Origin: a virus
Taxonomy: Duplodnaviria > Heunggongvirae > Uroviricota > Caudoviricetes
Reading direction: 5' to 3' (one strand)
Length of the DNA: 5,602 bases
Virus record (IMG/VR): IMGVR_UViG_2563366830_000004
Span: 1-5,602 of that record
Below the pieces are notes generated by a model. That model did no database searches and was not told where the DNA came from. It was given only the letters and a program-made list of their open reading frames with translations. The position numbers and the translations under genes are program-made. How positions within the stretch are numbered: position 1 is the first letter of the stretch; each line of letters opens with the position of its first letter. Positions 5,125 through 5,383 of this stretch are shown here, in pieces.

Positions 5125-5361
5125 ATGAACTTAAGAGACTATTTAAAAGAGAAACATATCACCCAGCTACAGTTTGGGAAGCTAACGGGTTTATCTCAGG
5201 TGCATGTAAGTCGAGTGCTGGGGGGCTATGAAAGATTCAGCCCTGAAAAAGCATTACGTGTTGCTGAAGTAACGAATTTCGAGGTTACACCTCATGAACT
5301 CCGGCCTGATATTTACCCGAATCCAACCGACGGCTTACCTGTTGGATTCAAGGCTAACTGA
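5125..5361 (+). CDS. Cro/YdaS-like HTH regulator, 78 aa; 3' end defined by the IS junction, so possibly truncated
   Basis: ATG at 5125 with SD GAAGG and a 6-nt spacer (the ORF-track TTG start at 5119 is 2 codons upstream). HTH segment ITQLQFGKLTGLSQVHVSRVLGG, and EVTPHELRPDIYP typical of Cro/YdaS-type proteins. The stop TGA at 5359..5361 is the first three bases of the IS terminal repeat. Confidence 0.8.
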   Translation: MNLRDYLKEKHITQLQFGKLTGLSQVHVSRVLGGYERFSPEKALRVAEVTNFEVTPHELRPDIYPNPTDGLPVGFKAN

Positions 5362-5383
5362 ACCGCCCCGGGTTTCCTGGAGA
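5359..5383. repeat. Terminal inverted repeat (IRR) of the IS629-like element
   Basis: Begins with TG as expected for IS3-family ends. It is the outermost sequence before prophage DNA resumes at 5358. Confidence 0.6.

Follow-up and report, generated by a model that had tools for sequence, protein, structure and literature searches.

A gene for a Cro-like protein in the immunity region of a lambdoid prophage ends at the point where an insertion sequence begins. The question raised by this locus is whether the element has cut the gene short and, if so, what the insertion has done to the switch of which the gene forms part. The stretch of DNA analysed here, referred to as the window, is 5,602 nucleotides long and belongs to a lambdoid prophage that sits beside ompW in E. 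coli. It is identical (100%) to positions 877-6478 of the KE137254.1 locus (GCA_000408725.1), where its contig lies between gaps of 10 N and 960 N, and it ends at position 5602 because the contig breaks at the 960-N scaffold gap. The features on which the analysis depends were as follows, with positions in the window.

4556-5017, minus strand: gene for a CI-like helix-turn-helix repressor of 153 aa, divergent from ydaS (open reading frame; Pfam HTH_3, 1.1e-9; RefSeq WP_000753626.1).
5018-5124, unstranded: divergent regulatory region of 107 bp, which holds a PRM-like promoter on the minus strand.
5125-5358, plus strand: coding sequence of the truncated ydaS, the Cro analogue, with 78 of the 91 native codons (open reading frame, RefSeq, Pfam and alignment with the 91-aa native protein).
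5356-5358, unstranded: left copy of the 3-bp target-site duplication AAC (filled against empty site; right copy after the other IS end in the scaffold).
5359-5361, plus strand: TGA with which the truncated ydaS stops, formed by bases 1-3 of the right end of IS629 (filled against empty site; annotated IS629 boundary).
5359-5383, minus strand: IS629 right terminal inverted repeat (IRR), 25 bp (23/25 matches to the IRL; end comparison in MS 196-1).
5359-5602, minus strand: first 244 bp of the 1310-bp IS629, with the transposase on the minus strand (alignment with annotated IS629; scaffold).
5401-5602, minus strand: 3' end of IS629 orfB, with the C-terminus ...GHTPPAEAEKAYYASIGNDDLAA (open reading frame; the annotated IS629 likewise has its orfB stop 42 nt from the IS end).

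The boundary between ydaS and the element was fixed at 5359 by three independent lines, namely empty sites, a filled site and an annotated IS629. In at least 140 complete IS-free E. coli genomes the match to the window ends exactly at 5358. The empty site of strain 042 reads ...GGCTAAC followed directly by ACACCAAATGCATCGGAGTTGATTCATG... (in the longer reading, GGCTAAC followed by ACACCAAATGCATCGGAGTTGATTCATGAAAATCAGGCATGA), whereas the filled site in the closed genome of MS 196-1 reads ...GGCTAAC, then the element, TGAACCGCCCCGGG...CCCGGGGCGGTTCA over 1310 bp, and then AACACACC.... The trinucleotide AAC, present as a single copy in the empty sites, is thereby found on both sides of the IS as a 3-bp target duplication. 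The original prediction had taken the stop codon of ydaS to be the first three bases of the terminal repeat, and this was borne out, the repeat occupying 5359-5383 exactly as placed. It had also proposed that the other IS end be searched for a 3-bp duplication and for the remainder of the gene. Both were found there in KE137254.1 and in MS 196-1: past the N gap, KE137254.1 resumes with the final 227 bp of the IS, and AAC comes next, then the displaced end of ydaS and a complete ydaT. Both IS portions in KE137254.1, of 244 bp and 227 bp, are identical to the MS 196-1 copy.

The element, thought from the outset to be IS629-like, is IS629 (synonyms IS1203 and IS3411). It aligned over 1310 of 1310 bp, at 99.5% identity, to a copy annotated by its depositor as 'IS3 family IS629' (LC567824.1), and the boundaries of the two coincide. 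The inverted-repeat ends, TGAACCGCCCCGGGTTTCCTGGAGA and TGAACCGCCCCGGGAATCCTGGAGA, match at 23 of 25 positions, with 5'-TG and CA-3' as termini. It is the right, orfB-proximal end that the window carries, and the transposase therefore runs antisense to ydaS. The full transposase gene lies outside the window; in its RefSeq annotation orfA and orfB are joined as one CDS by a 'programmed frameshift', with an AL1L pseudoknot feature, and the precomputed Pfam families recorded for it are HTH_Tnp_1, HTH_21, rve and rve_3. A 100%-identical IS629 copy was also seen inside int in AF017626.1, a 2662-bp 'phage 21 integrase' record from E. coli EC38. Among O157 copies of IS629, 62% are in prophages, and duplications of 3-4 bp are described (PMC3271280). 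Codon 79 of ydaS was not among the IS629 insertion sites that were found described in the literature.

The consequences for the protein were then read from the frame itself. The ydaS ORF on the plus strand runs from the ATG at 5125 to the TGA at 5359-5361, a total of 78 codons, and RefSeq places a 237-nt CDS at the same position (WP_001053424.1, 'YdaS family helix-turn-helix protein'). The native gene has 91 codons (WP_001053425.1) and shares its final 17 nt with the beginning of a YdaT-family gene. Alignment of the 78-aa product with intact homologues, as had been suggested, showed it to be the 91-aa native protein without its last 13 residues, TPNASELIHENQA, and with no foreign residues gained. 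Translation stops at the IS boundary because IS629 starts with TGA and the insertion fell in frame. TGA is present at both ends of the element, so that one insertion in three, in either orientation, will give an immediate in-frame stop; the supply of a stop codon by the IS is thus a matter of chance and little remarkable.

Pfam matches to the 78-aa product comprised YdaS_toxin at residues 20-66 (PF15943; 31.4 bits, marginal against a cut-off of 30) and HTH_3 at residues 3-52 (29.8 bits, cut-off 23), and the span covered by these matches, residues 3-66, is unchanged in the shortened YdaS. A PDB sequence search with YdaS returned weak Cro-like matches only (E about 0.005). Also kept is TPHELRPDIYPNPTDGLP, residues 55-72, which an alignment revealed as the sole invariant or near-invariant block of the YdaS family. 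The C-terminal tail, on the other hand, is variable in the family and is absent from homologues of 78-81 aa in Marinobacter and Arsenophonus. In the AlphaFold model of the 91-aa protein, pLDDT was 85-91 over residues 1-50 and below 50 over residues 81-91, and the lost tail is accordingly predicted to be disordered. Native YdaS tails in E. coli end in a conserved ...IHENQA; we infer that this conservation is due to the overlapping ydaT start region and operator and not to a need of YdaS. Since the HTH domain and the conserved motif are kept, and the missing tail is variable and predicted to be disordered, the 78-aa YdaS is expected to be functional: it probably still folds and binds DNA, and the Cro-like protein would probably not be inactivated by the insertion. 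The 3' third of ydaS, together with the operator described below, was conserved across prophages with differing YdaS N-terminal HTH parts, which points to a mosaic boundary near codon 54 of ydaS. Immunity specificity is set by the N-terminal HTH part.

Within the immunity region, ydaS faces the divergent repressor gene at 4556-5017 on one side, and in IS-free genomes it is followed on the other by an overlapping ydaT, a DnaT-like O gene and a lambda-P-like gene. As the original prediction had supposed, the native 3' end of ydaS and a YdaT-like gene have been displaced. In the window's own genome and in MS 196-1, the missing 13 codons and stop, the ydaT ribosome-binding site (GGAG), the start codon and ydaT-O-P are all intact, 1313 bp to the right. 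The YdaT of the present prophage is near-identical to PDB 3C4R and matches the CP-933P YdaT (PDB 8BT1) at 4e-79, differing from it at several positions. In CP-933P, YdaS is the counterpart of Cro, YdaT that of CII and PaaR2 that of CI. PaaR2 represses ydaS-ydaT, YdaS has been shown to bind the shared operators and to repress the PRM-type promoter, and YdaT activates PRE933P, a PRE-type promoter between ydaS and ydaT (PMC8630535). The main YdaT operator, OM, is 5'-TTGATTN6AATCAA-3' and lies at the ydaS end, downstream of PRE933P, within a footprint of ~95 nt (PMC9986795).

In its native form the present prophage has an operator-like repeat. The repeat reads TTGATTCATGAAAATCAG (11/12), lies outside the window (L002, 9878-9895) and straddles the ydaT ATG, and the IS629 insertion point is 18 bp to its left. 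The operator is perfect, TTGATTCATGAAAATCAA, and likewise straddles the ydaT ATG in the CP-933P-like locus used for this comparison, an O157:H7 match with the order repressor-RelB-ParE; it is also perfect in L007-L009. An OL/OR-like half-site, TTGGATTCAA, at window positions 5343-5352 was considered and dropped, as it is not conserved in CP-933P-type sequences. P0035 as the YdaS of CP-933P was ruled out, since the P0035 loci are without paaA2-parE2.

On the side of the switch opposite to the insertion, a promoter scan placed the PRM-like promoter on the minus strand, from 5051 to 5024, with a -35 of TTGATA, a 16-nt spacer and a -10 of TAAACT. Its -10 hexamer ends 7 nt before the repressor ATG at 5017, and for this reason the repressor mRNA may be leaderless, as has been shown for those of PaaR2 and cI (PMC8630535). 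Further leftward, the operon consists of ydfA, ydfB, ydfC, a 133-aa ORF, DicF, dicB, a DUF1482 gene (ydfD-like) and a large exonuclease gene, whose frame is still open at the edge of the window. The DicF sRNA is full length (2719-2770, minus strand; Rfam RF00039, 77 bits, E 2.5e-16) and is located between the 133-aa ORF/ydfC and dicB. As full-length DicF lies before dicB, the leftward operon was taken to be a Qin-type dicB/DicF division-inhibition cassette. Inside the operon, two converging ORFs of unannotated function at 3068-3385 (plus strand; 105 aa, 92 aa in RefSeq) and 3345-3746 (minus strand; 133 aa) overlap by ~40 nt, and a Pfam hit is recorded for neither. By BLAST the window was 98.3% identical to MS 196-1, and all 94 differences from the closest complete genomes fell at 801-1800, in the exonuclease gene; window positions 1129-1994 are repeated at 100% beyond the 10-N scaffold gap (L010, 1-866). 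These differences and the repeat suggest either an artefact of scaffolding or a patch of mosaic origin, derived from a paralogous prophage exonuclease gene.

Taken as a whole, it is very probable that a single IS629 insertion in codon 79 of ydaS has left a shortened, probably functional YdaS and exerts its main effect, probably, in cis. One copy of IS629 has inserted once, duplicating the AAC target, with its transposase antisense to ydaS. Between the PR-like promoter and ydaT, the replication genes O and P and the downstream Q there is now 1.3 kb of untranslated antisense IS, and the 17-nt ydaS/ydaT overlap, which would allow translational coupling, is broken. A reduced early-right expression is expected from both changes. 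If the PRE-type promoter is positioned as described for CP-933P, the IS would also lie between this YdaT-activated promoter and the repressor gene, and PRE-type transcripts would enter IS629 in the sense direction. Thus the main consequence is likely to be the uncoupling of ydaT and the replication genes, together with the parting of the YdaT operator from the repressor gene, and not a loss of Cro. Read-through across the IS may nevertheless be enough to express ydaT-O-P. When the ydaS-IS-ydaT region was scanned for promoters and terminators, no more were counted than in shuffled sequence, and no IS-borne terminator or outward promoter was found; the sole terminator-like hairpin on the plus strand is in the IRR and is weak (fold z = 0.35 against shuffled sequence).

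A further and very unlikely extension of this arrangement is that YdaT could drive transcription into IS629 from the PRE-type promoter, coupling transposase expression to derepression of the prophage. If true, IS629 bursts and prophage decay would be tied to derepression, and the repressor gene would be insulated from establishment transcription.

The distribution of the allele was examined next. The contiguous ydaS-ydaT junction is the common state, found in 646 genomes with at least 80% of a 161-bp probe. The filled site was found in two of 5426 complete genomes, the present ydaS type occurring in ~180; the allele is listed in 85 index blocks, representing dozens of assemblies. MS 196-1 carries the simple insertion. 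In M15 (NZ_CP185789.1) the left junction is the same and the IS has a one-base difference, with no duplication; the right flank resumes 2178 bp further on, inside a DUF1627 gene (L005, 11170 onward). The deletion in M15 takes ydaT, the DnaT-like O gene, P and the 5' end of the DUF1627 gene, and could have arisen by intramolecular transposition, by recombination between two IS copies or by IEE-type excision. IS629 has been tied both to gene inactivation and to deletions (PMC9943667, PMC3271280), and the copy in ydaS probably seeds further decay, of which the M15 deletion is an instance. The ompW prophage thus provides a decay series, from the intact form to the IS insertion and on to the IS-adjacent loss of ydaT-O-P. 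In MS 196-1 (NZ_CP146681.1, 2818000-2860500), the far end of the ompW prophage abuts btsS (yehU/mlrA region) and not yciE, an arrangement suggestive of a large inversion between two lambdoid prophages. Genes for capsid, decoration, portal and terminase are flagged as frameshifted in MS 196-1; in M15 they are intact.

These carriers bear on a less favoured but possible explanation, by which the insertion is a neutral IS629 hit, without functional consequence, in a prophage that was already defective. The IS segment has 23 matches in MS 196-1 and 33 in M15; in the M15 prophage, Q and the large terminase gene each contain a further IS629, and there is an ISEc23 as well; and IS629 prefers prophages (PMC3271280). 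The flagged structural genes and the displaced far end of MS 196-1 would fit such a history equally. However, the capsid and portal genes of M15 are intact, so that the frameshifts in MS 196-1 may be sequencing errors, and the ydaS insertion is the lesion common to all carriers, which suggests that it is the oldest. We consider a purely neutral hit doubtful on this evidence.

An insertion favoured by selection was also envisaged, in which potentially harmful early-right genes (ydaT and those for replication) are silenced and the repressor/Cro switch and the dicB/DicF operon are kept, a form of domestication. In Rac, growth is inhibited when ydaS-ydaT is derepressed (PMC5700373, PMC5700377), the ydaS, repressor and leftward operon frames of the present prophage are still open, and the allele persists in the assemblies mentioned above. 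In contrast, however, the YdaT of CP-933P displayed no toxicity (PMC8630535), the allele is rare relative to the ~180 complete genomes with the present ydaS, and its persistence needs no more than a single clonal event with hitch-hiking. Selection of this kind is thus unlikely.

The N gaps that bound the window in KE137254.1, and the repeat of 1129-1994 across one of them, might raise the suspicion of an artefact in a draft contig that ends in a multicopy repeat. Yet an identical junction was present in two closed genomes (MS 196-1 and M15) and in eight other independent assemblies or metagenome contigs, one junction being common to 10 of the 10 carriers examined, and the duplication and the exact 1310-bp length are visible in a closed genome; the junction is not an assembly artefact, and we give that explanation hardly any credence. 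The notion that ydaS naturally ends at this codon, with the IS merely downstream and nothing truncated, has some distant YdaS family members of 78-81 aa in its favour but a negligible chance of being correct, as it is refuted by the empty-site comparison: all close IS-free relatives run 13 codons further to a TGA overlapping ydaT, the TGA at 5359 is absent from the empty sites, and the displaced 13 codons follow AAC at the other IS end.

A single insertion into codon 79 acting chiefly in cis thus remains the preferred reading, and the observation in the original prediction is confirmed while its interpretation is partly supported. The lytic side of the switch had been thought inactivated or altered. 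For the Cro-like protein inactivation is improbable, its HTH and motif being kept; any effect would come through polarity on ydaT, O, P and Q or through the splitting of the YdaT-operator/PRE-like region from the repressor gene. Nor could a prophage locked in a cryptic state, as had been claimed, be attributed to this insertion alone, because the carriers have other lesions: the additional IS elements of M15, and the pseudogenes and displaced far end of MS 196-1. A cryptic lock through polarity is plausible. That the toxin operon is left as the main functional unit is speculation; the leftward dicB/DicF/ydfABCD operon is intact.

Every component of the locus is already known and annotated in RefSeq, and an IS629 hit of this kind in a prophage gene is routine, a case of ordinary prophage decay that matters little beyond annotation. 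It does account for the origin of the 78-aa WP_001053424.1 as an IS-truncated allele of the 91-aa WP_001053425.1, and the ydaS::IS629 junction is a clean marker for one E. coli lineage or prophage. As the IS sits beside the YdaT operator, the carriers can be regarded as natural mutants of the YdaT/PRE arm, and could be used to gauge the contribution of the CII-like/PRE arm and of ydaS-ydaT coupling in a switch of the CP-933P type.

When compared with known systems, the arrangement of the native locus is that of the ydaS-ydaT regions of Rac and CP-933P. Shared with these are a divergent CI-like repressor and YdaS, about 100 bp apart, a ydaT overlapping the 3' end of ydaS, a YdaT operator at the ydaS end, replication genes downstream and a dicB/ydfA-type operon leftward (PMC8630535, PMC9986795, PMC5917428). 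In contrast to CP-933P, the paaA2-parE2 cassette is absent here, ydaS is truncated and the IS has displaced ydaT. In its N-terminal HTH part, the present YdaS is only about 41-47% identical to other YdaS types. The element itself resembles the IS629 copies of O157:H7 prophages in its 1310-bp length, its 99.5% identity, its TG...CA termini and its 25-bp imperfect repeat, and also in the orfA/orfB frameshift, the 3-bp duplication and the choice of a lambdoid prophage gene as the site (PMC3271280). The host here, by contrast, is a non-O157 human commensal or extraintestinal lineage, and the mechanism is no different. As in the IS629-driven decay of O157, the loss in M15 of 2178 bp directly to the right of the element, with the left junction kept, is as expected for an adjacent deletion or recombination between two copies.
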